This document shows positions 9,688 through 61,900 of a stretch of 64,000 nt of DNA, one piece after another. The first letter of the stretch is position 1. Each line of letters begins with the position of its first letter. Location: NCBI GenBank assembly GCA_021162845.1, contig JAGGXX010000054.1, forward strand, positions 4,537 to 68,536, read 5' to 3'. The translations under genes were made by a program, and so were the position numbers. The notes under the pieces are model-generated. The model searched no databases. It had not been told where the DNA came from and saw nothing but the letters and a program-made list of their open reading frames with translations. Source of the DNA: Thermoprotei archaeon (GTDB lineage Archaea > Thermoproteota > Thermoprotei > QMSL01 > B3-G16).

Positions 9688-9741
9688 GTCGTCGCCCCAG
9701 CGAATTCTTATGTTAACACAAGGACTATATAATTAACCACG

Positions 9742-10669: not shown

Positions 10670-10679
10670 GTTAGATGGA

Positions 10680-11333
10680 ATGCTCTATAAGCATGGGGTT
10701 AGTAGGGTCATCGAAGACTATTTGGTGACTATAATTAGGTTGGAAGAGGAATACGGCGTAGCTAAGACGGGGGACATAGCTTTATCGCTAAATGTCTCAC
10801 CGGGAACCGTCACAAATACTTTAGTTAGATTGAAGAAGATGGGACTCATAGAGCGAACACCTTATAAGGGCGTAAGGCTGACCGAGAGGGGGAGACAGCT
10901 CGCACTCGATATCTTAAAGAGGCATCGGCTCGTCGAACGGCTATTAACCGACGTGTTGGGCGTGGAATGGTATAAGGTTCACGAAATAGCTCACAAACTT
11001 GAACATGGTGTTAATGGCATAGAGAGGTATTTAGAGAACGTGTTGGGCCCTGTGAGCACGTGCCCCCATGGCAATCCGATACTGATGGAGAAGAAGCGTC
11101 AGCATGAAGTGCCCATGGCCCAGATAAGAAAGAGAGGTGCCTATGTGGTTGTTAGGATCGTGATGGAGGATGAGGATACGCTTAAGTATCTTGAGGAACG
11201 AGGGATCAAACCAGGTACCATCTTTATATTTGAAGAACGGGATGTCGATAAGGTTAAGATCAAGATAGGCGAAGAGATCATCATCTTAGATGGGAAGTTC
11301 CCACGGGCTATAATTGTCCGAGAGGCGAAGTAG
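10680..11333 (+). CDS. DtxR/MntR-family metal-dependent transcriptional repressor with C-terminal SH3-like (FeoA-like) domain
   Basis: N-terminus MLYKHGVSRVIEDYLVTIIRLEEEYGVAKTGDIALSLNVSPGTVTNTL is a DtxR-type HTH. The C-terminal ~70 aa resemble an SH3-like domain. The track ORF starts at an upstream in-frame TTG (10668); I prefer the ATG at 10680. It is immediately followed by feoA with an adjacent stop/start. Confidence 0.75.
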   Translation: MLYKHGVSRVIEDYLVTIIRLEEEYGVAKTGDIALSLNVSPGTVTNTLVRLKKMGLIERTPYKGVRLTERGRQLALDILKRHRLVERLLTDVLGVEWYKVHEIAHKLEHGVNGIERYLENVLGPVSTCPHGNPILMEKKRQHEVPMAQIRKRGAYVVVRIVMEDEDTLKYLEERGIKPGTIFIFEERDVDKVKIKIGEEIIILDGKFPRAIIVREAK

Positions 11334-11579
11334 ATGAGCTGGACCGTAATACCGCTATTGATGTTGAATCCTGGAGAGGAGGGGGAAGTAATTCAGATAG
11401 ATGGGGGATGGGGCATTGTTAGACGATTAGCTGAACTAGGCATCTACCCAGGGGCCATAGTTAGGATGATGAATAAGAGCTGGGGACCTGTAGTGATCCT
11501 GGTATCGGGGGTTCGGATAGCGATAGGGAGAGGGATGGCTAGGAGGATATTAGTAAGGCCAATAAGGCGATCCTTATGA
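11334..11579 (+). CDS. feoA: ferrous iron transport protein A (FeoA, SH3-like)
   Basis: 81 aa: ...GEEGEVIQIDGGWGIVRRLAELGIYPGAIVRMMNKSWGPVVILVSGVRIAIGRGMA. It overlaps the feoB start by 4 nt. Confidence 0.7.
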   Translation: MSWTVIPLLMLNPGEEGEVIQIDGGWGIVRRLAELGIYPGAIVRMMNKSWGPVVILVSGVRIAIGRGMARRILVRPIRRSL

Positions 11580-40535: not shown

Positions 40536-40635
40536 GCCGGGGTGCCCGAGTGGACCAAGGGGCTGGCCTGGAGAAGGCCTAGAAAGCCAGTTCCCCATAC
40601 GGGGAGCGCGGGTTCGAATCCCGCCCCCGGCGCCA
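40536..40635 (+). tRNA. tRNA-Ser (class II, long variable arm, G73 discriminator, encoded CCA) with a short (~11 nt) intron in the anticodon loop; anticodon most likely GGA
   Basis: Hand-folded. Acceptor GCCGGGG/CCCCGGC. D arm CCC-GAGTGGACCAA-GGG. Anticodon stem CTGGC/GCCAG enclosing 18 nt (CTGGAG + intron + A). Variable arm hairpin CCCC-ATAC-GGGG. T arm GCGGG-TTCGAAT-CCCGC. Discriminator G, then CCA. A TATA-like ttataaag lies ~45 bp upstream. Confidence 0.75.
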
Positions 40636-41032
40636 TAATGGGATGTGGTTTAACCAATTTATTTTTACCTTCTATCTTCGTTCAATTGAAGGAAAGATTC
40701 AGCGTAAACGCCTTGAGAGAAGAGAGATAGGCCTCAACTATTATATACAGGTAGATAGTCAGCAGATAGTTCCGTAAAGAGGACTAATCCTAGGAGGACA
40801 TCTAAGTCTTCACCGTTAGGTGGTAGGCTAGTACTCATCAACTACAAGCGAGCTAAGCTACCTAACGAGCATGCCAAGGAATAACCAAGAACAGCCCGCT
40901 GCAAGTTTCCATAATTTCCAAGGAATAACTAAAGAATAAAACACGGGCAACCACCCTCTTTTACTTGCAATATTTAGAAGCATTTAGGAATAAAAAGAAA
41001 TAATACAAAAAGAGAGATATAGCTTCAGTATA

Positions 41033-42400
41033 ATGATTAGGGGTTGTCTAAAAATGAGACCTAACGTGCTTATTTTCCATACCGATCAACAGAGCCTCTG
41101 GACGATTAGCCTTTATGCGCGCTTAGTATACGGCGATAAACCCTTAGTAGAGACACCGAACATCGATAGGATCGGAAAGGAAGGAGCTGTATTCACTAAC
41201 TTTTTCGCTAATAGCGCGGTATGTACCCCATCACGTGGCTGCTTCCTCACAGGGAGATATCCCCATTATCATGGAGCCTACAAGAATAATGTGCCGCTCA
41301 ATAGGTCCGAGATAACCTTCGCTGAAATCCTAAGGAGACACGGCTATGAAACTGGCTATGCGGGTAAGTGGCATCTAGATGGGACACCGCGCCCTGGTTG
41401 GGTTCATCCGGAGCGTTCGATGGGATTTGAGCACTCCGAGTACATGTTTAATCGAGGGCACTGGAAGAAGGTAGAAGAGTATAAGGGAATGCAGCCCATA
41501 GTCTATCCATACCATGAGATTGGCGACGAAAGAACGTACATGACCGATTGGCTCAAGGATAAGACGATAGAGTTCATCCAGCGTCCACATACCCGTCCCT
41601 TCTGTTTCATGGTTAGCTTCCCAGATCCACATCCTCCCTACGTAGTCCGTACGCCCTATAGCGATATGTACGATCCGGATGATATGCCTATCCCGGATAC
41701 TTTTCGGCAAAAGAATCTTCCACGATGGGCGGATGAACGTCAAATTTATAAGCGAAATCCCCGTTGTCAGGAAGATTGGCTGCGTCATGTTAAAGCTCAA
41801 TATTGCGGTATGGTTAAGCTAATTGATGATTGTGTAGGTCAGATTTTACGTTGTCTTGAAGAGCAGGGTATCCTAGATGAAACGATAATCGTTTTTACGA
41901 CGGATCATGGGGACTACATGGGAGAGCACGGCCTAATGGGCAAGAATATGCTATACGAAACAGTTTACCATATTCCTCTACTGATACGCTGGCCGGAGAA
42001 GATAAGGAAGGGAACTGTGATCGAAGAGATCGTCAGCACCGTCGATTTTCAGCAAACGCTTCTTGGACTCATCGGGATTAAACCATGTGGTCGAGAACAG
42101 GGCAATGATGCCTCACCTCTTCTGCGGGGAGAGAAGATCGATTGGGAGAATAGGGTCTTCATCTATCACTCCAGTCACAATTTTGCGGGGATTATTACTC
42201 CTGATTTCGAATTGGTCTATGCAAGATATGGAGAGTCCATACTCTTTGATCGAAAGAATGATCCCGATCAGGTGAACAATCTATTCAATGATCCAGGGTA
42301 TCGAAAGGTAATCGATGAGCTCACTAAGCAACTCATTGAGCATCACCGAAAATTAAATTCCCCGGAGATCACTTGGCTTAACGCATACAATAGGTCTTAA
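41033..42400 (+). CDS. sulfatase (arylsulfatase family, Cys-type formylglycine site)
   Basis: Signature CTPSRGCFLTGRYP (C-x-P-x-R) near the N-terminus. ...TDHGDYMGEHG... in the C-terminal half. No signal peptide is obvious. Confidence 0.8.
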   Translation: MIRGCLKMRPNVLIFHTDQQSLWTISLYARLVYGDKPLVETPNIDRIGKEGAVFTNFFANSAVCTPSRGCFLTGRYPHYHGAYKNNVPLNRSEITFAEILRRHGYETGYAGKWHLDGTPRPGWVHPERSMGFEHSEYMFNRGHWKKVEEYKGMQPIVYPYHEIGDERTYMTDWLKDKTIEFIQRPHTRPFCFMVSFPDPHPPYVVRTPYSDMYDPDDMPIPDTFRQKNLPRWADERQIYKRNPRCQEDWLRHVKAQYCGMVKLIDDCVGQILRCLEEQGILDETIIVFTTDHGDYMGEHGLMGKNMLYETVYHIPLLIRWPEKIRKGTVIEEIVSTVDFQQTLLGLIGIKPCGREQGNDASPLLRGEKIDWENRVFIYHSSHNFAGIITPDFELVYARYGESILFDRKNDPDQVNNLFNDPGYRKVIDELTKQLIEHHRKLNSPEITWLNAYNRS

Positions 42401-42691
42401 TTATTCATCCTCAAACACCAAAAGTCCAAGATACTTAATAATGAAAAACTTAAGAGATCATAAAACCTATGATAAACAGAATGGTGCTAAGGAGAAAGCA
42501 TGAGAGAAACATTAACAGAAGATTCCTGGTTTTCCCTATTTCTAATAAAGAATGTCTAGTAGATGAATATTTTAGGATTCAGGAATTATAGCGAGGAGTA
42601 AAAAGCTCAATTTAATCTCTTACTTCAAAAAGAAAAATTAGAAAAGTTAAAGACCTTCAGCTAATTAAGATAGAATACAGGCGAATGATTA

Positions 42692-43816
42692 ATGAGGAAG
42701 GGTGGTAATTTAAGCGGGGTAACGAAATACGACCCGGATAAGGCCTATGAGGGGTATACGCTGTTCTGCCATACTTACGATCCACCAAACGTTGCCCAAG
42801 GCGAGCTTGCACACATGTACCTTATCGATATGAATGGAAACATAGTTCATGAATGGACCGCCAAGACTGCAGTTCAACTACTGGAGCTCTTGCCTAATGG
42901 TAATCTGTATTACACGACAAGGGATAGATCAGACATTAACTACGCCGGGTTGAGGGAGATAGATCCGAAGAGTAATGTGGTCTGGTCCTTTCATTGTAGG
43001 ATAGACCACGATTTTCATGTAATGGATAATGGCCACCTGATGATACATTGCATCATAGATAAAATGGCTCCCGAAATAGGGCCGGAATTAAAACGCTGCC
43101 CATATATCATTGAGATAACCCGAGAGAAGGAGCTTATCTGGGAGTGGTTCGGAGACGAGCACATAAAGGAGCTAGAGGAACTTTGTGGGATAAAATTCCC
43201 TCTTAAGGCCTCTCAGTTCAAGGGTTACCCGGAACATATGAAGAGGCATCTCCTCTTCGATTGGGCCCATAACAATACCTGTGAGGTATTGCCAGATAAT
43301 CCGTCTGGACGAAAGGATTCGAGGTTTAAGGCTGGCAATATCCTCTTCAGTTATAGGAGCTTGGATGTCATAGGGGTAATTGATCGAGAGACCGGAGAGA
43401 TCGTTTGGGCATGGGGCCCAGGCATCTTAGATGGACAGCATCAGCCAACCATGCTTCCTAACGGGAACATACTCATATTCGATAATGGGACGCGCCGCGG
43501 TTGGTCTCGCGTAATAGAGGTAAACCCCCTGGAGGAGGAGATAGTCTGGGAGTATACGGCTACGCCTAAGGAGAGCTTCTTTAGTCCTTACATATCAGGC
43601 GCTCAGCTATTGCCTAATGGGAACATATTCATCTGTGAAGGAGGGCCTTGCCGACTTTTCGAGATTACACGAGATGGGGAAATAGTCTGGGAGTACCATA
43701 GCCCTTATAAGGGGACAAAGGGAACTCATGGGATCTATCGCGCGACGCGGTATTCCCCAGAGTACGTTAAGCCATTACTCGAAAGAATAAAGGAATCTTC
43801 TGAACAAGAGGGCTAA
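42692..43816 (+). CDS. arylsulfotransferase (ASST)-like beta-propeller protein
   Basis: Repeated blades with LPNGN(L/I) and D/EIVWEW/Y motifs (LLPNGNLYYT, MLPNGNILIFDNG, LLPNGNIFICEGG, GEIVWEYHS). Fold-level resemblance only. Confidence 0.4.
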   Translation: MRKGGNLSGVTKYDPDKAYEGYTLFCHTYDPPNVAQGELAHMYLIDMNGNIVHEWTAKTAVQLLELLPNGNLYYTTRDRSDINYAGLREIDPKSNVVWSFHCRIDHDFHVMDNGHLMIHCIIDKMAPEIGPELKRCPYIIEITREKELIWEWFGDEHIKELEELCGIKFPLKASQFKGYPEHMKRHLLFDWAHNNTCEVLPDNPSGRKDSRFKAGNILFSYRSLDVIGVIDRETGEIVWAWGPGILDGQHQPTMLPNGNILIFDNGTRRGWSRVIEVNPLEEEIVWEYTATPKESFFSPYISGAQLLPNGNIFICEGGPCRLFEITRDGEIVWEYHSPYKGTKGTHGIYRATRYSPEYVKPLLERIKESSEQEG

Positions 43817-43975
43817 ATGTAAAAGGCCGGCTTTAGCTTTTTACATATTTATATTCGCTGTGATTCCTATGTCACACTCCTAGGGTAAATGTAAGCTGTA
43901 TGAGGAGATATGTTATATACCATATCCTCCTTGACGAATACTTCATTGAAGATATTATATATGTGTCCCTTAGCC

Positions 43976-44015
43976 ATACCCTTTCGACGAAATGAGCAAT
44001 AACTGTGATGTGCCT
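43976..44015. repeat. ~40-bp element ATACCCTTTCGACGAAATGAGCAATAACTGTGATGTGCCT; an interrupted copy lies at 46110..46210
   Basis: Both copies share ATACC(C)TT(T)CGA...CGACGAAAT(A)GAGCAATA...TG...TGTGCCT. The second copy carries three insertions. They flank the hypothetical/MscS/hypothetical gene trio. Confidence 0.35.
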
Positions 44016-44101
44016 GAAAGAGAAATTGGAAATCTCTAATTCATGCTTATCGAAAGCGATATAAATAAAACGTGTAAAAACAGGATCACGGGATAAGAGA
44101 T

Positions 44102-44455
44102 ATGTCGTTATCTTACGTTAAGGGAAGTTTGAAGAACGTAGATAAGGACGGAGACGGAATCGCAGATCATCTTCAGTTTAAAATGATTAACTACATAGGG
44201 AGCGGCTCAGCTTACGTTTCCGACTTTAAGGTTCTAGTAGACGGAGAAGACATGACTGATAAAGCCACTTTGAAGATAGCTGGTCAAGCCCCTAAACCTG
44301 TTAAATCATTAACTTACGTAACAGCGTATTACGGTGATGAGATATTGGTTGAAATTAAGCATGACGGTAAGATTAAGCCCGGCTTACATAGAGTTGAATT
44401 AAGCGCTAGGATCGAATGGTATCCCATCAGCGTTAAGTTCGAAGATACGGTATAA
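44102..44455 (+). CDS. hypothetical protein
   Basis: 117-aa ORF with no recognisable motif. AT-rich surroundings. Confidence 0.3.
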   Translation: MSLSYVKGSLKNVDKDGDGIADHLQFKMINYIGSGSAYVSDFKVLVDGEDMTDKATLKIAGQAPKPVKSLTYVTAYYGDEILVEIKHDGKIKPGLHRVELSARIEWYPISVKFEDTV

Positions 44456-44634
44456 TTAAATTAGTTTATAATGAATATAATGGGTCGATCTCTTTTTTCT
44501 ATGTGTTAAAAATTTATTAAGAAAGTCATCGATTTGACTACTATCACATGAAGTAGTGTTTCTTTTAAGCACTATTCCTTACTGCATGATAACCTAAGAA
44601 ATGCTTATTAAGTACATCCTTAAGAGACAGTGAT

Positions 44635-45270
44635 ATGACAAAGATAGAGGAAAAACTATCGAGGAGTGAATATAAGCGTAGAGGGGGTAAAGGTTTCGCT
44701 AAAATGATCGCTCTCCTGGTGTTATGTGCTTCAGCGCTAATGATTAATGATGCCTTTTTCGTATATGCCGTGTCACCGTTTATGCCTGCGTTTTCCAATT
44801 ATAAGGTCTACATAGATGCCATCATAGTATTAGGTCTTGGTTACATGGTGGTGAACTCCTTCGCTAGCAGTATCTACTGGTTAATGAGGATGGAGGTAGA
44901 TTATGCAACTGCTTCGTTGATGAGGACCATAGTGAGGATAATGGGCATAGCCATTTTATTAGCGATACTGACCTCGGTGTTTAACGTAAACCCTTCAGCG
45001 GCCCTCACGGTGGGCTCATTTGTAGGGATGGTGGTGGGCTTTGCTACTCAAAACGTCCTGAACCAGGCTGTTGCAGGAATCTTCCTAGCGCTGACGAGAC
45101 CCTTCAAACCTGGTGATAGTATAAAGGTAGCCGGACAAGAGGGCATAGTGAAGGAAATAGGCGTCATGCGCACCATTATAGTCAGTGAGGATGGATCAAG
45201 GGAAATACTGATACCTAGTAGTAGCATAGTTAACGCCACGATAATCAGGATGCAGAGGCAACAAAACTGA
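44635..45270 (+). CDS. mscS: small-conductance mechanosensitive channel (MscS family)
   Basis: Pore helix and beta-domain signature VGSFVGMVVGFATQNVLNQAVAGIFLALTRPFKPGDSIKVAGQEGIVKEIGVMRTII. Confidence 0.65.
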   Translation: MTKIEEKLSRSEYKRRGGKGFAKMIALLVLCASALMINDAFFVYAVSPFMPAFSNYKVYIDAIIVLGLGYMVVNSFASSIYWLMRMEVDYATASLMRTIVRIMGIAILLAILTSVFNVNPSAALTVGSFVGMVVGFATQNVLNQAVAGIFLALTRPFKPGDSIKVAGQEGIVKEIGVMRTIIVSEDGSREILIPSSSIVNATIIRMQRQQN

Positions 45271-45284
45271 TATCTAATGTAAGC

Positions 45285-46085
45285 TTAGATAAAGCCCATC
45301 ACGTTTTCAAGCTTAGATAGTACAACCTCTATATCTACTTCCCTTAGGTTCGGCGTGTAGATCAATAGCCCTCCTCGACTATCCAGCTTACAGGTTATCC
45401 TCTTACCTATCTCCGGCAGTAGTGGAGTCACAAAGGTGATAGAGGATATCTCATGAGCTGATGACTTCACCTTGGAGTAGATATCGGTAATATCCAAGCC
45501 TTCTCTTTTGATGGAGACCTCATCCAGGACAGTATCACCTATCTGAGCCCTCTTAAACGTCGCCCTTATTATGTTGCCTGAGACCTCATGCTCCTTTGCG
45601 GTAACCCACTTCTCAAGGGCATTGATGTGACTACGCTCTAGATGTAAGGGGGATGCTGAGGTCGTGTCGCCGTAAAGCCTTAATGAGGCTAGCTGTGCGA
45701 TGGCCCTAGCAATACGTTTATTCGGAGCATCAAATATGATGAGAAGACCTGAGATGACCCTAATCCAGACATCGTGCTCCATATAGATCTCGTATTCCTC
45801 TATCCTGCGTTCCCCTCCACGTACATATGAGAACTTCCCACGAAACGTATACGAGAAACGTAATCTAGCATCCTTAGTGGTACCCCTTATGCTGGATAAA
45901 CGCCCATTTAGTCCCACTACGATCTTGGAGAGATTTTCAAGTCTTCGTAATGATGCCTTATCGCCGGCTTCCTCGAAATAAGCCTTAAGCTCTTTAAGCG
46001 AAGCCCCATTTAAAGTTGATAAGATATCCTCAGGGGCCTGGGTTCTCCCTCTCGGAAGTAGAAATAAAGAGAGAGCCCTAGGCAT
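45285..46085 (-). CDS. hypothetical protein
   Basis: 266-aa ORF with no motif recognised. Confidence 0.3.
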   Translation of the reverse strand: MPRALSLFLLPRGRTQAPEDILSTLNGASLKELKAYFEEAGDKASLRRLENLSKIVVGLNGRLSSIRGTTKDARLRFSYTFRGKFSYVRGGERRIEEYEIYMEHDVWIRVISGLLIIFDAPNKRIARAIAQLASLRLYGDTTSASPLHLERSHINALEKWVTAKEHEVSGNIIRATFKRAQIGDTVLDEVSIKREGLDITDIYSKVKSSAHEISSITFVTPLLPEIGKRITCKLDSRGGLLIYTPNLREVDIEVVLSKLENVMGFI

Positions 46086-46212: not shown

Positions 46213-48966
46213 TCAATCAGTGCTTAGCTCTAGAATGGAGTCTTCCTTCCTCAGACCAGCACACGAGGGGCACAGCACGCGCTTTCTGAAGAACGTCCTC
46301 TTAATTATCGCGCACTCTGGACATATAGGCCTGCCACAGGATGAACACGTAAGGGCATGTGAAGGGCATAGTTCTCTACCACACGATGAACAACGGATAA
46401 TATGGGATGGACAAACTGGCGCGTTACATATGGAACAGAGATGGACATGATCGGAACAGAGGGGTTTGCCACATACGACGCAGAGGCTTACATGCTTTAC
46501 ACAGAGAGGTGATGCACAATATGAGCACTTTATGATGTGAGATGTACACAGGGGAGCGCCACAGTGCTTACATAATGGTACCTCCACGAGTGATGTAATG
46601 GTTGATAGTGATTTCTCGACTAGCTTACCGCAGACGATGCATCTACCGAAGGAAGCCTTAAGCGAGTACGGATCGATAAGCATACTCACTGAGGAGGTCC
46701 CATATGCTAACTTAAGGCGATATCTCAATATGAACACGCGCCCTTCCTCAACGATCCTTAGGTCTGGACGGACTTCTATTTCCTGAACGGCCGCCTTCAG
46801 GAAAGCCTCATATTTCCTAACAAGGGCTTCTCGCTTTTCCTCATAAGACCTTTCGATAGTATCTAATTCATCGATTAAGCTTTTTATGGCCTTCTTAAGC
46901 TTTAATACGTTCTTCTCAGCGAGTCTAAGCTCGCGCTTAAGCTTCCTGAGCTCCTTCGTTACGTCTCGCGTGTTCAGGCGCCTTTTCCTCAGCTCTTCAC
47001 GGATTTCCTCTAGCCTCTGAACCCTATGCTTTAAGGACTTATAATCGCTCTCATGAAGCTTCAACTCGGCTTCGAGCACAGGCTTTGTGTTAAGCAATTC
47101 TCTCTTCTTTAGCTCAAAGCGAAGCCTTAACTCCTCCTCTTCCCTCTCAAGTTCGCCCTTTACCTTTTCTTCCAGACGCTTCATTAAAGGCGTTAGCTCG
47201 CTTTTATCGAATGTAGCCACCTCTAAGGGTGCTACGTAATAGACTTTGGTCTTCAACAGCTGGCGTAACATGGAGATTACTTCATCTCGAGGGGGAGAAG
47301 AAGTTGATGTGCTTTGCGCCTGGAAATCATAGAGGTCATACACAAGAGGCAGATCCCTGACCTCACCCAAGTGCTCCATAAGCTGTAACTTTTTACCCTT
47401 CATCACCACTAAGACGTGTTCTCCTCGGGATAACTGGAGCTTCTTCAGCCTGAGCCTGAGGGCCGAGCGCAGTAGGTAATAGGGTAGTGCTTCCGCCTCT
47501 ATATCAAAACCCACGATCTTCAATCCTAGGGCTTTGAACTTCCGAAGAACTTCTTCCTTCGAGAGTTTAGGCCTTAAAATGGGTAGGCTTTCCGATGGGG
47601 CCTTGATGTCCTTTAAGGCCCTTTTAGGTTTAACTATGGGTCTCTTCCCGACAAGCATACGTATCTCGGATGGCTGCAGTGGGCCTCTATGGTAAGTTAT
47701 CAGCCAGCGTGGCTCAACTATCACGGTCCTTCCGGATTCGTAATTATGATATAGGAAGGTGCGTGGCCTTAGCCTAGGGATTATCTCGGTTAAATCCTCG
47801 TCTATATTAAGGCCTTTCTTGACCTTTGCTATGTCCTGTCTGGTGGCTAACCTCCCCACAAATCTATGAGCCGCATTGGACAATACCTTGTAGTCTATAT
47901 CCGCTGGATTCTGAGTGGCCAACAGACAACCTAGACCGAAGGCTCTGCCCTGTTTTATCAATAACATGAGGCCAGCTTTAGATGGAGGCTTTCCAACGGG
48001 AGGTATGAATCCCACGAGTTCATCGAAGTAAAGGAGAAGGCGTAGGCTTGAGGTACCGCCTTGTCTTAGTAGCCACCTATATAGCTCTTGAAGAAAAGCG
48101 CCTATGAAGAACTGCTTCTCTTCCATAGTCGTCATGAACCTTAAGTCAATGACCGATATCGTGCCGCGCTGACTGAACTTCCCAAAATTAATCATCTCGC
48201 CATCGAGCCAGCTCTTGTAAGTCGGGTGAGAGAGGAGGACGTTTAGGCTACGGGCTAACTTGAGCCTAGCCCTCTGTGGTATAAAATCCTCAACGGCGAG
48301 GGAGCCTATTTGATCGAATGGAGGGTTGATGACTTCCTGAACTAAATCCTCAAGTGATATGGATTCCCCATCTAGCCAGTGGGTTTCTATTATTTGGGAG
48401 AGAAGAGCGTGTTCTTGGGTGTTCCTCTCGCCATATCCAGCCAATCTCAATAAAAGGGACACCGTATTGTCTATGGCATCGTAAAGGACCGTCTTGTCCT
48501 CGGCCACTATTTCCCTTATGTTTGGAATAGGATCCAGCGATGGTCTAATGGAAAGAGGGACGCCTGTTGAGCTACGAGGGGTGTATATTACGACACGGAC
48601 GTTCTCTACATAGTCACATATCTTCTCGCGGGATACCCCCCACTTGGATAGTTCCCGTAAATACAATCCCCTTAGCCTTTCCGCATACTCCCCAGGGTCG
48701 ATACCCCGCTCCTTAGCTTCAAGGTCCGACCAAGGACGGAAATCTAGATCAGGCGAGGCTATAGCGAGCGCGCCTATATCGCCCTTGGGGTCTATTGCTA
48801 TAATGGAATAACCCTTAAGGGCTAGCTCCTCCACTATGGCCTTACATAAGGTAGTCTTCCCCGACCCTGTTGCTCCCAGAACCACCGTATGCTTCAGAAG
48901 GGTATCCGTGTTAATACCGAAGGTCTCGCCACTAGACGTGCGCCCTATCACGATGACATCGCTCAT
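46213..48966 (-). CDS. HerA/FtsK-superfamily (DUF853/DUF87-like) P-loop ATPase fused to a long coiled coil and a C-terminal array of ~7 tandem 15-aa Cys3His zinc-knuckle repeats
   Basis: Walker A VVLGATGSGKTT, then IAIDPKGDIGAL (a DxKGD motif of DUF853/HerA-like ATPases). Walker B LLLYFDELVG. Residues ~560-720 are a heptad-rich, charged coiled coil (ELEREEEELRLRFELKKRELL...). C-terminus: CKHCGAPLCTSHIIK CSYCASPLCVKHVSL CVVCGKPLCSDHVHL CSICNAPVCPSHIIR CSSCGRELCPSHALT CSSCGRPICPECAII. Confidence 0.6.
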   Translation of the reverse strand: MSDVIVIGRTSSGETFGINTDTLLKHTVVLGATGSGKTTLCKAIVEELALKGYSIIAIDPKGDIGALAIASPDLDFRPWSDLEAKERGIDPGEYAERLRGLYLRELSKWGVSREKICDYVENVRVVIYTPRSSTGVPLSIRPSLDPIPNIREIVAEDKTVLYDAIDNTVSLLLRLAGYGERNTQEHALLSQIIETHWLDGESISLEDLVQEVINPPFDQIGSLAVEDFIPQRARLKLARSLNVLLSHPTYKSWLDGEMINFGKFSQRGTISVIDLRFMTTMEEKQFFIGAFLQELYRWLLRQGGTSSLRLLLYFDELVGFIPPVGKPPSKAGLMLLIKQGRAFGLGCLLATQNPADIDYKVLSNAAHRFVGRLATRQDIAKVKKGLNIDEDLTEIIPRLRPRTFLYHNYESGRTVIVEPRWLITYHRGPLQPSEIRMLVGKRPIVKPKRALKDIKAPSESLPILRPKLSKEEVLRKFKALGLKIVGFDIEAEALPYYLLRSALRLRLKKLQLSRGEHVLVVMKGKKLQLMEHLGEVRDLPLVYDLYDFQAQSTSTSSPPRDEVISMLRQLLKTKVYYVAPLEVATFDKSELTPLMKRLEEKVKGELEREEEELRLRFELKKRELLNTKPVLEAELKLHESDYKSLKHRVQRLEEIREELRKRRLNTRDVTKELRKLKRELRLAEKNVLKLKKAIKSLIDELDTIERSYEEKREALVRKYEAFLKAAVQEIEVRPDLRIVEEGRVFILRYRLKLAYGTSSVSMLIDPYSLKASFGRCIVCGKLVEKSLSTITSLVEVPLCKHCGAPLCTSHIIKCSYCASPLCVKHVSLCVVCGKPLCSDHVHLCSICNAPVCPSHIIRCSSCGRELCPSHALTCSSCGRPICPECAIIKRTFFRKRVLCPSCAGLRKEDSILELSTD

Positions 48967-48985
48967 GATCGACTATCCCCATATA

Positions 48986-51862
48986 CTACGGGTTTATAAC
49001 GATATATTCGCCTTTCCGCTTACCATAGGCATAGCCTAAGGCAGTGCCACAGGCTACCCCTAATACGGCTATAACCGATGATATTACAGGCCATGTCCTC
49101 TTCGCTCCCTCATATCTCTCCTTCACTTTCGATAGCTCCTCGTACTTCGCGGTAAGTGTTTGATTCCAAGCCCTTAACGAGTCATATTTTCCGAGAAGTG
49201 TATGATAGTCCTCCAGTAATTGTACATACGTGACATTAAGCTGGAGCAGCTTAGATCTCAATTGCTCGTAATCCCGAGTTAGGTTTCCTAAGTTCATTAG
49301 CGCCAGTGTGTAATTTGTGCTTAACTGGTTGAAGTTAGCGTTGAGACGAAGGTATTTATTCCTTAGCTCCAAGTAATCCTTCTCTAGTCTCTGGAATTCC
49401 TCAAGCAGTGAGCTATACGTCTCATTAAGCTCGGCATAGGTGTCCTTTAACGAGTTGTATTTTGTGTTAAGGGAGTTATACTTAGACAGAAGCGAGTTAT
49501 AGTTCCGCTTAAGTGAGAGGTACTTCTCCACCTCCCTCTCATAAAGGGATTTATACTTGATGTCCGTAAAAGCTGGAACGTCGATTATAAGGGATGTGAG
49601 ACCGTAAACCGTGATATCGCTCTTCCCGACGAGGAGGTCATCATCATATACCTCTATGGTAAGTGAGGTGACGTTGACTAAGTTTAGCTTAACTAGACCC
49701 TCGTCGTTTGCCTTACCGGCGAATAACAAGCGTCCATCTCCGTAGACCTTAATATTAGCGAAGGGAACGACATCGCCCTTTACGGGATCGATAATTCGTA
49801 TATAAACCCCGCTTATGAGCTTCTTAAGATGCACCTCAAGATATGTGATCCCATCCAGTTCCACGGATGGATTTAGATATTCCGTGTAATTCTCGGCACT
49901 CACCTTCACCTGATATATCCCTGCAGGGAGGTTGAAGCTTACACATCCGTTTACGTCAGTGTATGAGGATGAGAGGACAGTACCCCGATTGTCCATGACA
50001 ATGACTTGGGCGTTGGGTACGGGATCCCCTGTAAGCAGATCTACCACATGTGCTCTTAGTTGTATCGGTTCCATGATCATCTTCACGGACTCAGGGGAAA
50101 CAGTTAAGTCCAAGGACGTAACGGTAGGGGCATAACCTTCGTGTTCAGCTATTAAGGTGTAACGCCCACCGCTCAACGTTAGGTTTAGCCAACCCTTAGC
50201 ATTAGTAAGGCCATTAATTATCGTGGTATTACCTTCTATGAGAACCCTAATGTTCACCCCGGAAACGGGCTTTGAGTCTATATCCAGCACCTGGATAAAG
50301 AGCTGTCTACGCTTCGTCATTAAGGCCAGCAGATAACCTACAGTTGCCTTGACGCTCTCAGGGGTGCTCTGGTCTAGAACGGAAAACGCGAAAATTCCTT
50401 TTCCACACATGACCGCAGCAACGGCTTGGTATCTTTCATCTCCCACTGTCACGAACGTATCATAGAGCGAGAAGAGGCAGGGTGCGGAGGCCTTAAGGCT
50501 ATTGGGAGCCATCACGGCAGCCCATACATTCCATGGAGATATGTTCAGCTCATTAACGAGCTTTAGGCCTATATCCGTTAGGACAGCCGCTAATGGTCTA
50601 TCCGTCATCCCATTCCAACAAAAGCCACCCACCGTAAAGTTACTAGCCGCGGATAGGAACGCAGCTAATCCCCCTTCTTCCAGGAGTGACCAGTAGTGCG
50701 CGTGACCATTAGCTACGATGGAGAAAGGATAGCCCGCGATGTTCACTAAGATCCAGCCCTTATCCCTTACACATAGAGCTAGATCCGATATGTATGCATA
50801 TGTAGGAGCAGTGCCATCTGTGATTAAGTACTCATCAGGGATTGGCATGACCGCGCCGTGAAGGTTTATCAGGGTAATGCCGCGAACATCCGATGATATT
50901 AGCCTGTACAGATCAACACTTGAGTTGACTACGTGGTAACTTAAGTTCATGGAGCTTAACTGATCCTCGATATAGGCTAAAGTAGAGGGCATATCGAGCC
51001 CGTACCAGGCGGTGTCATTTATGGCTAATAGGTATACATCCGGTTCCGAGTTAAGTAATACGTGAAGGTATATCAGTGAAGTAAGGGCTATATCCGCCTT
51101 AACGAAATCAGGCTCATGCCATACGCCTACATGCACATAGTAACCCTTACCTAAGGAATAGGCGGCAACGGTCTTGAACGCCCCAAGGTACCCTATGGCC
51201 TCGGTGGAATATAGCGTAAAGAAGGGGTCCACGTTAGTCGAGATGCTGTACGTTGCCGAGACCTTAGTAGGCAATGAGGTACCAGCGATCTTAGAGGCAT
51301 TAGCACCCTCAAAGGTCAACATCGCGTAGTCTAAGGAGCCTGCCCTCTCGATATAACCATTGACTTTAACGCTAAAGTTGAGGGCGTTGAAGAACGTGGA
51401 GACACCAGTTTCCCCTAACTCTACTGATAAATGTTCCTCATCATTAAACGCGTAACTGAACGGTAGGCCCGCTAGGTTAATGAACGTGAATCCTCGCTTA
51501 CTCATATTGACCGCAAGGTCCCTCAAAAAGTTAAGAGCGCCTTCTTCCCCTGAGAGAGCATAGGGCATGGGTACCGGTATCGCGGAACCATGGAGGTTTA
51601 TTATCAGATCCCCTGTAGATGCATTCGCAAGTATGCTCCTAAACGAGGTAAAGTTCCTTATTACCGATATCTCCATCCCATTATCCGTGAGATAGGAAGA
51701 CAGGGGTTGTAGTAGAGAGGGCGATACGTCCCTAAAAGCCCCTGAGGGAATGAATATGAGATATGCACGTCCCTCATATCCATTTCTCGATGAGGTGACG
51801 AGGAAGGGGGTCGCAAGTGAAATTAGCATAAGGGTTAATAAGGTGAGACAATGAATTCTCAT
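48986..51862 (-). CDS. secreted surface (S-layer-associated) glycoprotein with N-terminal signal peptide, beta-rich ectodomain including carboxypeptidase-regulatory-like domain, C-terminal coiled-coil stalk and single C-terminal transmembrane anchor (tetrabrachion-like architecture)
   Basis: Signal-peptide-like MRIHCLTLLTLMLISLATPFLVTSS. More than 20 N-x-S/T sequons. GVNIRVLIEGNTTIINGLTNAKGWLNLTL is a prealbumin-like fold. A ~150-aa coiled coil with YNSL/KYNSL repeats follows. C-terminal TM WPVISSVIAVLGVACGTALGYAYGKRKG. Confidence 0.6.
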   Translation of the reverse strand: MRIHCLTLLTLMLISLATPFLVTSSRNGYEGRAYLIFIPSGAFRDVSPSLLQPLSSYLTDNGMEISVIRNFTSFRSILANASTGDLIINLHGSAIPVPMPYALSGEEGALNFLRDLAVNMSKRGFTFINLAGLPFSYAFNDEEHLSVELGETGVSTFFNALNFSVKVNGYIERAGSLDYAMLTFEGANASKIAGTSLPTKVSATYSISTNVDPFFTLYSTEAIGYLGAFKTVAAYSLGKGYYVHVGVWHEPDFVKADIALTSLIYLHVLLNSEPDVYLLAINDTAWYGLDMPSTLAYIEDQLSSMNLSYHVVNSSVDLYRLISSDVRGITLINLHGAVMPIPDEYLITDGTAPTYAYISDLALCVRDKGWILVNIAGYPFSIVANGHAHYWSLLEEGGLAAFLSAASNFTVGGFCWNGMTDRPLAAVLTDIGLKLVNELNISPWNVWAAVMAPNSLKASAPCLFSLYDTFVTVGDERYQAVAAVMCGKGIFAFSVLDQSTPESVKATVGYLLALMTKRRQLFIQVLDIDSKPVSGVNIRVLIEGNTTIINGLTNAKGWLNLTLSGGRYTLIAEHEGYAPTVTSLDLTVSPESVKMIMEPIQLRAHVVDLLTGDPVPNAQVIVMDNRGTVLSSSYTDVNGCVSFNLPAGIYQVKVSAENYTEYLNPSVELDGITYLEVHLKKLISGVYIRIIDPVKGDVVPFANIKVYGDGRLLFAGKANDEGLVKLNLVNVTSLTIEVYDDDLLVGKSDITVYGLTSLIIDVPAFTDIKYKSLYEREVEKYLSLKRNYNSLLSKYNSLNTKYNSLKDTYAELNETYSSLLEEFQRLEKDYLELRNKYLRLNANFNQLSTNYTLALMNLGNLTRDYEQLRSKLLQLNVTYVQLLEDYHTLLGKYDSLRAWNQTLTAKYEELSKVKERYEGAKRTWPVISSVIAVLGVACGTALGYAYGKRKGEYIVINP

Positions 51863-53489: not shown

Positions 53490-54500
53490 TCACTCTAATT
53501 GTGAACTCACGTAATACATGCTCTGCCTAGCGTCTCTCAAATTAGGCGTCTTGATCACAAGGCCCTTCTTAAGTAGGAGGGAGAGGGCGTATCTGACGGT
53601 TCTAGGTGGGAGCAATGTCCTACGGGCGATGTCCTTTTGCGTTAGAGGACCTTCATATTCTAGTACTTTAAGGACCAGTTTAGCGCTAGGCGGCATCTTG
53701 ATCAGCTCTTTAGCCAGCTCTACCTTCTTATAGAGTCTATCATGTACATGAGAACTCCTCTTTAGGCGTATCAATTTAATGTACTTCCCCATGCCTGTAA
53801 GACATATCCCCTTATGTACCTTACAGCGCAATATACCGTCGGCTATAGCTTCAATATCGCAAGAGCTTTCTATCTCGTTCAGGATCACTGTGGAGTCGCT
53901 TGGGACTACCAGGGGCCTCCTGGTTAAATCCATTGAGTTGACCGGAGTTACGACGAAAGCCTTAGTACCGATGAGCATTAAGGGGCCTCCAGCGGACATG
54001 GAATATGCGGTCGAGCCTATCGGCGTGGCCGCTATGACTCCATCGGCCATATCGCGCCATATGTACTCCCCGTTAACCCAAAGGCCGTATTTCATAAGCG
54101 TAGCGCTCTTTGAAGGGAATATGCATATCTCGTTCACGGCCCATAGCTCCACCTCGGAGTCGACGAGACCTCTTATCAGCTCGCTCTTCTCCAGCTTATA
54201 ATCCTCCGAGAATAACCTTTCAGCGACCCACCCTAAGTCTTTGAAAGTGATATCGGTTAAGAAGCCTATGCTATTCGCATAGTTCACGCCCAATACAGGT
54301 CTCTCGAAGATTCTCAGTTCGTGATATGCCCTCAAGACCGTCTTATCGTCACCTATCACTAAGGCGATATCGTAGTCACAGGACATTTCCTTCGGGAATA
54401 GTACTTCCATCCCTAGGGAGGTAAGGCGGCGTATTATGTGATCTGCTTTACTTTTTAATGAGTTATCCAGATATACCAGGGCCTTCATATGAATTCGCAC
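53490..54500 (-). CDS. nadK: NAD kinase fused to a C-terminal winged-HTH (MarR/TrmB-like) domain
   Basis: NAD kinase motifs are present: NYANSIGFLTD (NxGxLGFL) and DGVIAATPIGSTAYSMSAGGP. The GGDG region reads IGDDKT. The last ~80 aa, KLVLKVLEYEGPLTQKDIARRTLLPPRTVRYALSLLLKKGLVIK, are a clear HTH. Confidence 0.7.
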   Translation of the reverse strand: MRIHMKALVYLDNSLKSKADHIIRRLTSLGMEVLFPKEMSCDYDIALVIGDDKTVLRAYHELRIFERPVLGVNYANSIGFLTDITFKDLGWVAERLFSEDYKLEKSELIRGLVDSEVELWAVNEICIFPSKSATLMKYGLWVNGEYIWRDMADGVIAATPIGSTAYSMSAGGPLMLIGTKAFVVTPVNSMDLTRRPLVVPSDSTVILNEIESSCDIEAIADGILRCKVHKGICLTGMGKYIKLIRLKRSSHVHDRLYKKVELAKELIKMPPSAKLVLKVLEYEGPLTQKDIARRTLLPPRTVRYALSLLLKKGLVIKTPNLRDARQSMYYVSSQLE

Positions 54501-54724: not shown

Positions 54725-54982
54725 TTAACATTTATTGCTAGGAAGTTTCATTTGGCGCCTTAGTTTTTTAATCCCTTCTTCAAATACCCTGTCTTCGTCG
54801 ATTTCGCCGAGTCTGGAAGAGTATAGCTCTATGGGGTCTATTAGTTTACGGGGTACTAGTATTATTCTATTGTCCTTAATCGTTACTATGAGTTCATCTC
54901 CTTCTTTGATCTCTGCTTTGTGCCTGATACTTGCCGGAAGTTTTAATATTCCGCCTTTATACACCTTAATGATCTCGTACAT
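54725..54982 (-). CDS. AbrB/SpoVT (swapped-hairpin) domain protein, VapB/MazE-type antitoxin-like
   Basis: N-terminus MYEIIKVYKGGILKLPASIRHKAEIKEGDELIV is typical of SpoVT/AbrB antitoxins. 85 aa. Confidence 0.55.
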   Translation of the reverse strand: MYEIIKVYKGGILKLPASIRHKAEIKEGDELIVTIKDNRIILVPRKLIDPIELYSSRLGEIDEDRVFEEGIKKLRRQMKLPSNKC

Positions 54983-55030: not shown

Positions 55031-55480
55031 ATGAGAGGATCATTGCTTTGTGATACCATATGTGTCTGGGCTCTCTATTTTCGAGATTCAGCTTATCGTA
55101 AGCACGTACTTAAGTTGAGGTCGAGTAATCTACTGACAATACCTGATATATGCCTTATAGAGGCGTCCTACCCGATATATGAGGCTAAAGGTCTTGATGA
55201 GCTAAAGAGGTATTCTAGGTTTGTTGAGAACATAATCCTAGCACATAACATTAAGGTGTTGACCGTATCTTTAGAGGATCTAGCTAAAGCCTTAAATTTA
55301 GCTGTAGTCAACCCTGAGGTCTTTATAGATGAGGAGGGCAACCTATGCTTATTTGACGCATTGATAACCTCGATATGGATGAGGACTAATGTCCCTCTTG
55401 TTACGTCGGATAAGAGGCTCATAGAGTTCGGTGAGAGAAGGGGATTAAGTGTAATAAGGTTACGAAAGGCTAAAGTATAG
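55031..55480 (+). CDS. PIN-domain (VapC-like) ribonuclease
   Basis: Acidic residues in PIN positions: LLCDTICVWALYF (Asp near the N-terminus), ...LFDALITSIW... and ...VTSDKRL.... 149 aa. Confidence 0.55.
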   Translation: MRGSLLCDTICVWALYFRDSAYRKHVLKLRSSNLLTIPDICLIEASYPIYEAKGLDELKRYSRFVENIILAHNIKVLTVSLEDLAKALNLAVVNPEVFIDEEGNLCLFDALITSIWMRTNVPLVTSDKRLIEFGERRGLSVIRLRKAKV

Positions 55481-58905: not shown

Positions 58906-61900
58906 CTAAATATCTTTTCCCACTTCACGAATGAGCTTGACCCTATCCTTTACCTCGCGATATAATTCCTTGATCACTTCTTGATAATCAGCCTTGCCTA
59001 GCTCTATTACGTCCATGAGTTTTTCTAACTTACGGGTGCGCTCTTCAGAGACGAGATCTTTGTAATTAGTTGATAGATATTTATAGACCTCTATGCCTAA
59101 TTTCGTCGGTATAAGCCTGCGTCTTTTCTGCGATTCAATTACGTACTTGCGCTCGATGAGCGTACGTATTATCTTGGCATAAGTAGATGGTCTACCTATG
59201 CCCCTTCTCTTCATAAGATCAACGACATCGCCTTGGCTAAATAACATCACACTTGGGAGCTTCGCGTGTGTGGCTTCTACTATCCGTAGCCTATCGCCTT
59301 TCTTCATCTCAGGGATGAAGAGGGACTCCTCTATAGGATAAACCCTCGAGAACCCATCGTATATCACCTTGGTTATACCTGTGACCTCCTTCTGTATATC
59401 GCCTATCTTGAGAAGGGTCTTGAGCCGTAAGACCTTAGCTGACTTCATTTGACTAGCCAGGAAGCGACGGAATATCATATCATAGAGCCTATAGTGAAGC
59501 CAGGTAAGCGGGCGGGGTGTTCTAATTATGCCATCGCGTATTAGCTGGGCTAGCTTATCTACATCAAGGGGACGAGTAGGGCGAATGCATTCATGTGCTC
59601 CACCGGTACCCCAGTCTCTACCTTGATAGTACTCCTCACCTAAGGATTCCCTGATGTACTCCTTCGCTATCATCATGCCTACCGCTGAGACCCTCGTGCT
59701 GTCAGTCCTATGATATGTGATTAAACCGAACTCGAATAGGTCTTGAGCGAGTGACATAGTCCTCGCTACATCCATTCCCAATCTAGATGACGCCTCTCTT
59801 AGTAAAGCATCTGTCGTAAAGGGCGGTGGAGGGTTTATCGTGGCTTCATGGATCTCAGCATCGACTACCACGCACTCGGATCCCTGAAGCTCCTTTACGA
59901 ACTCCTTAAGAGGTTTTTCCACGTATACGTCTTTAAGCATAAGCCTAAGGCCGTTTTCCAGCGTTATGTATATGTGATCCGCTATGCTATCCCTATGTTC
60001 ATTATAACGTTGGATTATCCAACCTAGGACAGGCGTCTGAACTCTACCAGCGGATAATCGCCTACTTTTGAACTGCTCCCATAATTCCTCGCTGAGGGCG
60101 AAGCCTATCCACCTATCCTCAAGCCTACGGACTATTTGCGCCTCTACTAAACGTTCATCTATATCCCTAGGGTTCTTAAGGGCTTCGAGGATGGCACGCT
60201 TTGTGATCTCATGGAATTCGATGCGCCTTATGTAGCTAGTATAGGGCTTTATCACAGTGGCTATATCCCAGCCTATCTTCTCGCCCTCTGTATCAGGATC
60301 CGTTCCTATCAGAATTATGTCGACCTCACGGGCTAGGTCCCTAAGCGTGTAAACGACTTCAGCCTTATCGGTGAATTCGGTGGACTTACATAGGGGGCAT
60401 GCGTCCAGACCCACGAATTGTTCACCACAGTTCGCACATCGCCTTATGGTCGAGTATACTGGTACGAAGCGCTTGTCTATGATCCTAGTGCCATAAAAGT
60501 CCTCTGGAGTTAACACTAAGTCGAACACGTGACCGCCACTAGCTATTATCGAGAGCATGTAAGTGCCAGTACTAGTCTCGTATACCACATAACGACCGAT
60601 CCTCCTAAGGGAGGGCCTGCCGAAGAAGCTAGCAATAGTTCTGGCCTTACTAGGCGACTCTACGATCATCAACGCGCTTTTCACGGGATCCTTGAATTCC
60701 ACCTTGATCTTTCCGGCCAGTAGGTCGCTAATTATGCGTCTATCGCGGTCTATCTCATTTATAAGAGATCTAACATCAACTTCCTCTAGAGATCTCCATG
60801 AAATATCTTCTATGAACCAACGGGTCTTCCTAACTAAGCCTTGAAAGACCTTATCGTTATCAATTATGACTATGGAGGCTCCCTTTGATATACCTCCTGC
60901 GAACATCCTAGAGGTACGTCCGCTGGCCTGTATGTACGTCATGGTATCTGGGACTATGACCCGCAAGGTGCCCTCCACTTCCTCTAATAAGATGTAGGGA
61001 CTTTCCTGGATCTTCTTCTTTACATCCTCACGTGCTAATAACTCACATACCTTATGATAGCCGAGTAGAAATAGCTCTTGGGCTTTGCCTAATGTACCCT
61101 TTAATTTAGTACCTTCTTCTATCGCCTTTCTGATCTCGGCTACTCTATTAGGCGGAAGTTCTCTTAGATACCGCATTATGCGCACGAAGAGTTTATCCAC
61201 TTCATCACGCTCCTTGCCCTCAAGATAATCCCTTAAGTCGAATAACAGCGAGGCAATCCTGAAGGGATGCACTTCCTTAGCCTCTAGGCTGAAACGTAAC
61301 TTAGGAACACCTACGAATACCGCGTAACGTATCCTCTGTGGAAGATCAAGCCCTCTAACTAATAACCCATAGTACGTAGCAACTCCGACCAGCACATCGA
61401 CTTCGCCCCTGAGAAACCTCTCTATCTGGTCACCCTTCTTTGATGAGACCACTACCTCAGCCCTGACACCATGTTGGTTTAAGAACTCAGAGAGCTCCTC
61501 TGCATAACTTGCTCCCTTATCTATTGGTACGAATACTAGCCCACCATCACCGAATAGCCTTATGATCCTTAAGACCTCCTTCTCAATATCCTCCTTAGGC
61601 TTATGGTAAATGTCCTCGATGTTCCTGATGAGCTCGGATCTACTGCCTGCTTCGAAGCCTAACAGTTCTCGAAATAGCCTAACCCTAAGACCCCTAGCCC
61701 TACCGGTAGCGCTGGATACGACCAATACGCCTAGATCCCGCTTACTTAAGGACTCCTTAATCTCCCTCTCAAGTTTTCGTATATTTGAAACTGCTTCCTC
61801 TAGCTTTACCTTATAGGACTCGTCCTGTCTAGCGAACGTGATTAAGAAGGGAATGCTTCTCCTCAACCTTATGAGCTCAAGCCCTAGTTCTATTAAATTC

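Follow-up and report, generated by a model that had tools for sequence, protein, structure and literature searches.

The window analysed here, a 64,000-nt stretch of contig JAGGXX010000054.1 from a Thermoprotei archaeon (GCA_021162845.1), carries on its minus strand a gene encoding a surface protein of 958 aa (48986-51862) and, 19 bp behind it, a gene encoding a P-loop ATPase of 917 aa (46213-48966). These two open reading frames (ORFs) and the gap between them had been noted in a preliminary description made from the sequence alone, and were confirmed. With a probability of roughly 0.55, the genes represent a lineage-specific operon in which the gene of a SlaB-type S-layer stalk is combined with that of an autonomous, pan-archaeal ring motor of the HerA/FtsK superfamily. 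The anatomy of both proteins, their family memberships, their distribution, and their synteny pattern were observed directly, and a dedicated two-protein envelope machine as a conserved system is not supported. In agreement with the preliminary description, no report on the pairing or on the proteins was found in the literature searched. The novelty lies more in the uncharacterised ATPase family and in the extended SlaB-like protein than in their pairing.

Anatomy of the Surface Protein

The surface protein begins with a signal-peptide-like N-terminus (residues 1-25, MRIHCLTLLTLMLISLATPFLVTSS; 51788-51862; the parts of both genes are all given on the minus strand). Its hydrophobic sequence, MRIHCLTLLTLMLISLATPFLV, exceeds a value of 1.6 in the 19-residue Kyte-Doolittle window at residues 3-7, and according to the alignment the homologs have hydrophobic start segments, too. 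The segment is followed by an N-terminal region with an internal duplication (residues ~26-270 and ~271-520; 50303-51787), which was recognised in the homolog alignment and in which the motif (I/V)NLHG..P.P ... IN(I/L)AG.PF is seen twice. For residues 25-521 no Pfam match was obtained at E<=10, and no PDB family scored above threshold for the N-domain. Three CarboxypepD_reg/transthyretin-like immunoglobulin (Ig)-fold domains are situated next to this region (residues ~521-765; 49568-50302), as indicated by Pfam (CarboxypepD_reg 6e-22, bMG3 3e-12, CarbopepD_reg_2 3.5e-9) and by the homolog profile, which matched the collagen adhesin 6fwv in the PDB with an E-value of 6.6e-15.

The coiled-coil stalk (residues 767-920; 49103-49564) consists of 22 unbroken heptads with Tyr, Phe, or Leu in position a and Leu in position d. 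In this register 39 of the 45 a and d positions are hydrophobic, compared to 3-25 in the other registers, and both positions are invariant across the homologs in the alignment. The heptad run contains three copies of YNSL as well as five sequons, and would extend over ~23 nm if helical throughout. N-x-S/T sequons occur 19 times in the whole surface protein, where 8.3 are expected from its composition, and not at all in the ATPase. The C-terminus (residues 924-958; 48989-49093) is formed by a WP motif, the only further hydrophobic helix of the protein (~924-946, hydropathy window at 923-927), and a cytoplasmic tail of 12 residues that includes KRKGEYIVINP (C-terminal sequence ...LGYAYGKRKGEYIVINP, tail peptide WPVISSVIAVLGVACGTALGYAYGKRKGEYIVINP). 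A secreted, sequon-rich protein with a YNSL coiled-coil stalk and a single anchor had been proposed in the preliminary description, and the signal-like segment, the sequon count, the heptads, and the single C-terminal helix bear this out.

A profile of the five surface protein homologs matched SlaB of S. acidocaldarius (PDB 8qox_B) with an E-value of 6.3e-7 (30.3 bits; bias 17, due to the coiled coil). The match is weak, extends over profile positions 580-929, and covers the Ig domains, the coiled coil, and the transmembrane (TM) helix. In case of the NCBIfam model of SlaB (Metallosphaera), an E-value of 2.4e-5 was reached at 23.4 bits, with a cut-off of 700. We infer a Sec-exported, N-glycosylated, and C-terminally TM-anchored envelope stalk, presumably an S-layer or S-layer-associated protein of a Thermoprotei sub-clade, which is SlaB-like in its predicted architecture and probably also in ancestry. 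By analogy to SlaB, the stalk would be a parallel trimer. Only five clusters of homologs are detectable, with 99, 49, 34, 34, and 32% identity, and the surface protein is less conserved than the ATPase (49% versus 58% and 31-34% versus 46-48% identity).

Anatomy of the ATPase

Residues 1-440 of the ATPase (47647-48966) represent a HerA-class RecA-like core, as indicated by Pfam, motifs, and Foldseek. Walker A (GATGSGKT, residues 31-38) and Walker B (LLYFDE, residues 311-316) are invariant in 42 sequences. The Pfam families DUF87 (43.2 bits, cut-off 23.2) and HerA_C, formerly DUF853 (36.8 bits, cut-off 22), match the N-terminal part only. An AlphaFold2 model built from 42 homologs reached a predicted local distance difference test (pLDDT) value of 85, and Foldseek searches with it against the PDB returned SIR2-HerA (8wld), HerA (4d2i), DndH-C (7es4), and VirB4 (4ag5), the best E-value being 1.5e-14. 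The core is devoid of a HAS barrel, since in the model the P-loop strand comes after only ~25 residues, which contain two short strands.

A disordered linker (residues 442-459) leads to a beta-rich middle domain (residues ~470-585; 47212-47559), which is visible in the model, is poorly conserved with only 29% identity to its closest relative in L001 (L numbers designate the loci compared with the window), and lacks a Pfam match. It is followed by a helical hairpin or coiled coil of ~140 aa (46795-47205; pLDDT 85-92), whose two helices (residues 588-661 and 667-724) are joined by a turn of five residues and would due to this short turn be packed in antiparallel orientation. A small beta domain (residues 727-775; 46642-46788), also taken from the model and retained in distant homologs, separates the hairpin from a Cys/His array (residues 776-902; 46261-46641; pLDDT ~90). 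The array is composed of a CxxC, six repeats of C-x2-C-x4-C-x2-(H/C) with a period of 15 residues, and a further CxxC. Its 28 ligands correspond to seven putative Zn sites, and 23 cysteines are located in the last 150 residues of the ATPase. Although its columns are almost invariant across the homologs, no Pfam family matched the array above cut-off (best, Siva with 21 bits versus 26.2) and no PDB family above threshold.

No hydrophobic segment was detected in the ATPase by hydropathy. Judged by Pfam, motifs, Foldseek, and the AlphaFold2 model, the protein is assigned to the HerA/FtsK superfamily of P-loop ATPases and carries the coiled coil and the Cys3His array, as initially noted. Judged by the fold of its superfamily, it would assemble into a hexameric ring. 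The impression that its domain combination is unusual did not hold, since at least five CxxC motifs are found in the tail of 71 of the top 120 cluster representatives.

Microsynteny and Origin of the Pairing

The spacer between surface gene and ATPase gene (48967-48985) contains a Shine-Dalgarno (SD)-like GGGG and no oligo-T run. In L001, L003, and L097 the gap amounts to 21, 23, and 8 bp, respectively, and an SD-like GGGG or GGAGG is situated 8-12 nt ahead of the ATPase ATG in three of the four lineages. Direct reading of the sequence revealed no internal TATA box conserved over these four lineages; the TTATAAA present in the window and in L001 is made up of V-I-N codons and is absent from L003 and L097. 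Due to the small gaps, the SD-like motifs, and the lack of a conserved internal promoter, both genes are likely co-transcribed.

Surface gene, ATPase gene, and a gene encoding a protein with an RdgC fold follow each other in the window and in L089, flanked by a phosphoribosyltransferase (PRTase) gene(-) and an MscS gene(-). The same order is observed in L001 and L090 (ATPase identity 58%), with two additional IF-2B genes. In L003, L004, and L092 (46%) as well as in L097 and L093 (48%), the three genes are preceded by reverse gyrase, HSP20, HIT, THUMP-SPOUT, and winged helix-turn-helix (wHTH) genes, and followed by two IF-2B genes. An exception is L095 (43%) with the order THUMP-SPOUT, lactamase_B, PRTase(-), wHTH, ATPase, and RdgC-fold. 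Here the surface gene is missing from the same syntenic block, and the wHTH gene occupies its place 8 bp upstream of the ATPase gene; the adjacency of surface gene and ATPase gene is thus dispensable. In L091 the RdgC-fold gene is located directly after THUMP-SPOUT, and surface gene and ATPase gene are both absent within 7-8 kb.

In a neighbour-joining tree, the ATPases with an adjacent surface gene form one sub-clade, which points to a single gain of the pairing, in a small group of archaea from hot springs. The RdgC-fold protein of L091 nests inside the clade, in agreement with a secondary loss or relocation of the pair. The genes are therefore not always adjacent, a property considered in the preliminary description: the neighbourhood comparison placed the pairing in one sub-clade, and it is absent from L095 and from distant loci.

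Earlier, the module was thought to lie in an AT-richer segment next to a tRNA, and an accessory origin was proposed. Neither of the two premises was confirmed. The module has a GC content of 0.476, compared to a window mean of 0.466 (69th percentile of windows of the same size), and the sole tRNA gene is separated from it by 5.6 kb and five genes. Reverse gyrase, THUMP-SPOUT, NAD kinase-MarR, GNAT, and PRTase genes of the window belong to the same conserved core block that is found in the relatives. An accessory or mobile origin is ruled out by the average GC content together with the syntenic flanks (reverse gyrase, HSP20, HIT, THUMP-SPOUT ... IF-2B). A search of viral contigs returned a single match of 33% to the ATPase core and none to the surface protein.

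In L003 and L097, the surface gene is preceded by the gene of the wHTH-like protein of ~185 aa mentioned above (L095 5205-5768, L003 4473-5036, L097 4506-5054), which may regulate the operon in these lineages and in that of L095. No homolog of it was detectable in the window.

Occurrence of the ATPase Family

Among the candidates scored, 779 matches were assigned to the ATPase family. The full architecture is present in Nitrososphaera (P0022, P0039, and P0102; P numbers designate ATPase homologs), Woesearchaeota (P0038), Undinarchaeota (L010), and Baldrarchaeota (L013), and the core alone shares 36-42% identity with proteins from many bacterial phyla. In L096 (42%) and in L005 and L009 (41%), the ATPase gene stands alone in unrelated contexts. 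The homolog of N. evergladensis (L006) is located among genes of a riboflavin operon, the one of L007 (Woesearchaeota) next to genes encoding TFIIB and an ABC ATPase, and other distant full-length homologs have neighbours such as methyltransferase genes. The ATPase genes of L008 and L101 are stand-alone as well. No surface protein homolog was found near the full-length homologs of L005-L010, L013, L096, and L101. BLAST and hidden Markov model searches over all fetched ATPase loci likewise detected relatives of the surface protein and the RdgC-fold protein in the close clade only. Clustering of the two nearest neighbours on each side in 83 loci outside the clade did not reveal a recurring partner, as no family occurred in more than four loci.

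The ATPase family is old, widespread in Archaea, and normally stand-alone among housekeeping genes, from which it follows that the surface protein is not required for its basic job. The HerA-like ring, the helical hairpin, and the seven-Zn rod are common to members from Thermoprotei, Nitrososphaeria, DPANN, and Asgard lineages. The homologs from Nitrososphaera, including that in the complete genome of Ca. N. evergladensis SR1, offer a possible route to experiments. In L011 a Bathyarchaeota ATPase without Zn array is followed by a gene (8140-8739) encoding a protein with a Zn ribbon and four TM helices.

The RdgC-Fold Gene Downstream of the ATPase Gene

A gene encoding a protein of 266 aa (45285-46085, minus strand) is located 127 bp after the ATPase gene. 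It had not been mentioned in the preliminary description and adjoins the ATPase gene in all close relatives that have the ATPase in this region. The protein shows the RdgC fold. A sequence bridge to RdgC was not found in the PDB, neither with the single protein nor with profiles of 7 or 42 sequences, and no Pfam match was obtained at E<=10 (PF04381); the larger profile matched pentapeptide-repeat proteins, presumably via one contaminating member. Identity to RdgC of E. coli (2OWL) and P. aeruginosa (2OWY) is 10-12%.

The family comprises ~54 clusters at 50% identity with members of mostly ~250-268 aa, which are nameless in the clusters sampled; a word-based search returned seven clusters with 56-70% identity. 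A TATA-like box is conserved 40-50 nt upstream of the gene in every lineage, including L091. This box suggests that the RdgC-fold gene is probably a separate transcription unit. Distant RdgC-fold genes in L099 and L100 have no ATPase gene nearby, and in case of L100 (7001-7807) a gene encoding a bifunctional-nuclease (BFN) domain (6528-6959) is situated 41 bp upstream. RdgC-like proteins have been described beside "RdgC histones" in Halobacteria and Bacillus (Schwab et al. 2024, PMC11390915). Unlike this haloarchaeal operon, the gene of the 266-aa protein has no histone or TM partner of that kind.

Functional Interpretation and Alternatives

Considering the two genes as an operon of a stalk and an autonomous motor, the surface protein would carry its Ig-like domains and the novel duplicated distal domain at its outer end, held ~23 nm off the membrane by the stalk. 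The ATPase would act as a soluble ring-forming motor with a helical-hairpin arm of ~10 nm per subunit, each tipped by a rod with seven Zn sites, and may use ATP to translocate or remodel a polymer. Judging from the superfamily and the Zn-knuckle array, nucleic acid appears to be a likelier substrate than protein. The arms could serve as adaptors for substrates or partners, possibly on the cytoplasmic side of the membrane. We presume that the surface gene reached its place directly before the ATPase gene in a single event, in the ancestor of the Thermoprotei sub-clade, and was vertically inherited from then on, and that the core functions of both proteins would be independent of each other. The function of the ATPase predates the surface protein.

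Several observations weigh against this interpretation and would fit a membrane-coupled pair, in which the cytoplasmic stalk tail brings the ATPase ring to the inner membrane face by contacting its Zn-rod arms or beta domains. Such a pair might serve the insertion or turnover of S-layer or stalk, link chromosome or cell division with the envelope, or take up or export DNA. We regard the coupling, like these roles, as possible but doubtful. The tail with its juxtamembrane part (WP...LGYxYxKRKGEY(I/L)V) is the most conserved region of the surface protein, with 42% invariant columns versus 14-27% in the other regions, a value derived from five sequences and a tail of 12 residues; a conserved tail would fit a cytoplasmic binding partner. 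The spacing of the pair has stayed tight despite a divergence of the surface protein to 31% identity. Its co-transcription is likely, and between the conserved flanks of L091 it is missing as a unit. In P0010 (L010 5989-9192), P0013 (L101 5425-8649), and P0048, a hydrophobic C-terminal helix of ~20 residues follows right after the last CxxC. These homologs appear to be tail-anchored, and the position of the helix directly after the Zn array suggests that, in some lineages, the C-terminal arm extends to the membrane; the stalk tail would be the in trans equivalent of this cis anchor.

The surroundings of other family members point in the same direction. The tail-anchored Undinarchaeota gene in L010 is flanked by genes encoding a CWB2-domain protein of 1811 aa (444-5879, minus strand) and a VWA protein of 814 aa (10310-12754, plus strand) with a weak, sub-threshold S_layer_C match. 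In L012, a Nitrososphaeria-like metagenome-assembled genome (MAG), an independent case is given by a 658-aa protein encoded 53 bp downstream of the ATPase gene (8667-10643, plus strand), which combines a signal peptide with four CarboxypepD_reg domains and has a C-terminal anchor that ends in WKRIKP. Based on simple ORF and hydropathy calls in the 83 loci, N-terminally hydrophobic proteins account for 17.1% of the two nearest neighbours on each side versus 10.2% of the farther genes (odds ratio 1.8, p=0.006), and large ones for 8.4% versus 4.1% (p=0.018), a modest enrichment from crude ORF and TM calls with both p values uncorrected. Operon-like partners in this survey include a penicillin-binding protein transpeptidase, a wall protein with three CWB2 domains, a tetratricopeptide repeat lipoprotein, and phospholipase D-like proteins. 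On the other hand, the pairing arose once and is dispensable in the syntenic L095, most members of the ATPase family have neither a TM segment nor an envelope neighbour, and the C-terminus of the ATPase is not conserved within the surface-gene clade. Furthermore, the coupled envelope-spanning machine of the preliminary description would require a channel in the membrane. The module encodes neither a channel nor another membrane component, and the part of the surface protein exposed to the cytoplasm is just 12 residues long.

That the ATPase family as a whole consists of membrane-proximal ring motors with six coiled-coil arms, anchored in cis by a C-terminal TM helix in some lineages or in trans by the SlaB-like stalk tail in the Thermoprotei clade and coupling the envelope to polymer translocation in the cytoplasm, is rather unlikely. 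If true, the family would be a candidate for the long-sought archaeal equivalent of FtsK-like motors that clear or segregate DNA at the envelope, or for a driver of S-layer stalk insertion. If the pair were coupled, it would represent the first archaeal S-layer anchor that signals to or recruits a cytoplasmic motor, with a bearing on how envelope growth, division, and chromosome handling are coordinated in Archaea.

Three further explanations place the ATPase in a different context. A DNA-transaction pair of the ATPase and the RdgC-fold protein, i.e., a translocase and a DNA-encircling, clamp-like partner loosely resembling HerA-NurA, with the surface gene as a passenger, is improbable. The RdgC-fold gene has its own promoter-like box, it is found beside THUMP-SPOUT without an ATPase gene in L091 and without one nearby in L099 and L100, distant ATPases lack an RdgC-fold neighbour, and the relation to RdgC is by fold alone. 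An anti-phage defence system of the HerA-plus-effector type (SIR2-HerA, DUF4297-HerA, MADS mad8) could be suspected from the best PADLOC match (mad8, 2e-17, core only), from several antiphage HerA models at 1e-10 to 1e-13, and from the SIR2-HerA complexes among the top Foldseek matches. These matches reflect the shared ATPase core, and the scores are far under the cut-offs (NCBIfam HerA_antiphage 44.7 bits versus 800). An adjacent effector (Sir2, nuclease, or methylase) is missing, the neighbours have no PADLOC matches except for coiled-coil noise, and the location in a conserved core block of average GC content as well as the stand-alone members in housekeeping contexts also argue against defence, which is disfavoured as very improbable. 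Equally small is the chance of a Ced/Ted-like DNA import or conjugation-type apparatus with the ATPase as CedB/VirB4/VirD4 analogue. Weak NCBIfam matches to CedD (2e-11), CedB (4e-9), and TraD (2e-9) and the Foldseek match to VirB4 are in its favour, but with 36-43 bits the former are far under the cut-offs of 366-700, the ATPase has no TM segment, and neither a VirB6/CedA-like polytopic membrane protein nor a pilin gene is encoded nearby, so that it was disfavoured as well.

Other Features of the Window

The truly AT-richer stretch of the window (40636-45284, GC content 0.428) contains genes encoding a sulfatase (41033-42400), an arylsulfotransferase-like beta-propeller protein (42692-43816), a C-glycoside-deglycosidase-beta-like protein (44102-44455), and an MscS channel (44635-45270). 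It may represent an accessory cluster for the utilisation of sulfated glycans beside a tRNA. This tRNA (40536-40635, plus strand, 100 nt) has an ambiguous ARAGORN anticodon "gaga" and reached 47 bits with the Rfam tRNA model; it is probably an intron-containing archaeal tRNA.

On the other side of the module, a fusion of an NAD kinase with a C-terminal MarR-type winged helix (53490-54500, minus strand) occurs in L001, too. A gene of a PIN (VapC-like) toxin (55031-55480, plus strand) is located next to a divergent MazE/AbrB-type antitoxin gene (54725-54982, minus strand). Since this pair is absent at the matching position of L003 and L097, a local insertion in the syntenic block is indicated. 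The presence of a reverse gyrase (58906-62634, minus strand; zf_Rg, helicase, Toprim, and topoisomerase IA) identifies the organism as a hyperthermophile, and its closest named relatives are MAGs labelled "Thermoprotei archaeon".

Comparison with Known Systems

With HerA (Sulfolobus 4D2I, Thermococcus HerA-NurA 9X1M, SIR2-HerA 8WLD) the ATPase shares the RecA-like core, the Walker motifs, and the HerA-type insertions, with Foldseek E-values of 1e-13 to 1e-14. Differences are given by the missing N-terminal HAS barrel, the missing NurA or effector partner, and an additional C-terminal module of 480 residues. An assignment as a bona fide HerA of the HerA-NurA type was rejected, as the NCBIfam models helicase_HerA and HerA_Thermprot scored 16.8 bits (cut-off 970) and 16.2 bits (cut-off 800), respectively. 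A HerA-NurA repair helicase was discarded because the genes next to the ATPase gene encode the surface protein and the RdgC-fold protein, and are not nurA, mre11, or rad50.

The HAS-less HerA-like core is also a feature of DUF853/YjgR (PF05872; PDB 11kk), and the homologs of the ATPase at NCBI are named "DUF853 family protein" or "helicase HerA-like domain-containing protein". The match to PF05872 is confined to profile positions 7-67 of 502, and the one to the YjgR structure (E 3e-6) to residues 1-70 of the ATPase. Proteins of the YjgR type are devoid of the coiled coil and the Zn array, and no paper on the function of DUF853/YjgR or on the architecture of this ATPase was found in the literature searched.

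FtsK/SpoIIIE as well as EssC/EccC of the type VII secretion system are membrane-anchored ring motors of the same superfamily. They work at the membrane, and a few homologs of the ATPase are likewise membrane-anchored. In contrast to FtsK/SpoIIIE, the ATPase has neither an N-terminal TM domain nor a gamma domain, and the anchored homologs use a C-terminal tail anchor. An assignment to FtsK/SpoIIIE was rejected due to the PF01580 score of 18.8 bits (cut-off 24) and the lack of a hydrophobic segment.

The surface protein had initially been called tetrabrachion-like. Tetrabrachion of the hyperthermophilic crenarchaeon Staphylothermus marinus is a C-terminally anchored protein of ~1500 aa with a long glycosylated coiled-coil stalk; this stalk is four-stranded, far longer than that of the surface protein, and includes a right-handed segment of 11-residue repeats. 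Both proteins are long glycosylated coiled-coil stalks with a C-terminal anchor, and as an analogy the term is justified. As a statement of relationship it is not, since no match to tetrabrachion was obtained in the PDB, Pfam, and NCBIfam searches and, unlike the 11-residue repeats, the 154 residues of the stalk follow a strict Tyr/Leu periodicity of seven.

The closest counterpart in architecture is SlaB (Saci_2354), the membrane stalk of the Sulfolobales S-layer, which is resolved in 8QOX as part of the SlaA/SlaB assembly of S. acidocaldarius (Gambelli et al. 2024, PMC10903991). It has 475 aa and is composed of three beta-sandwich domains, a trimeric coiled coil of 132 residues, and a C-terminal TM helix (PMC10903991). 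All elements of a SlaB-type architecture, i.e., the signal peptide, consecutive beta-sandwich domains, a long C-terminal coiled coil of ~130-150 residues, and a single C-terminal TM helix, are found in the surface protein as well, along with a heavy N-glycosylation potential. A large secreted gene resembling slaA does not adjoin the surface gene, whose neighbours are the divergent phosphoribosyltransferase gene upstream and the ATPase gene downstream. Compared to SlaB, the surface protein is twice as long and has an additional duplicated N-terminal region of ~500 aa. It would extend the SlaB-type stalk design beyond the Sulfolobales and add a new distal domain to it.

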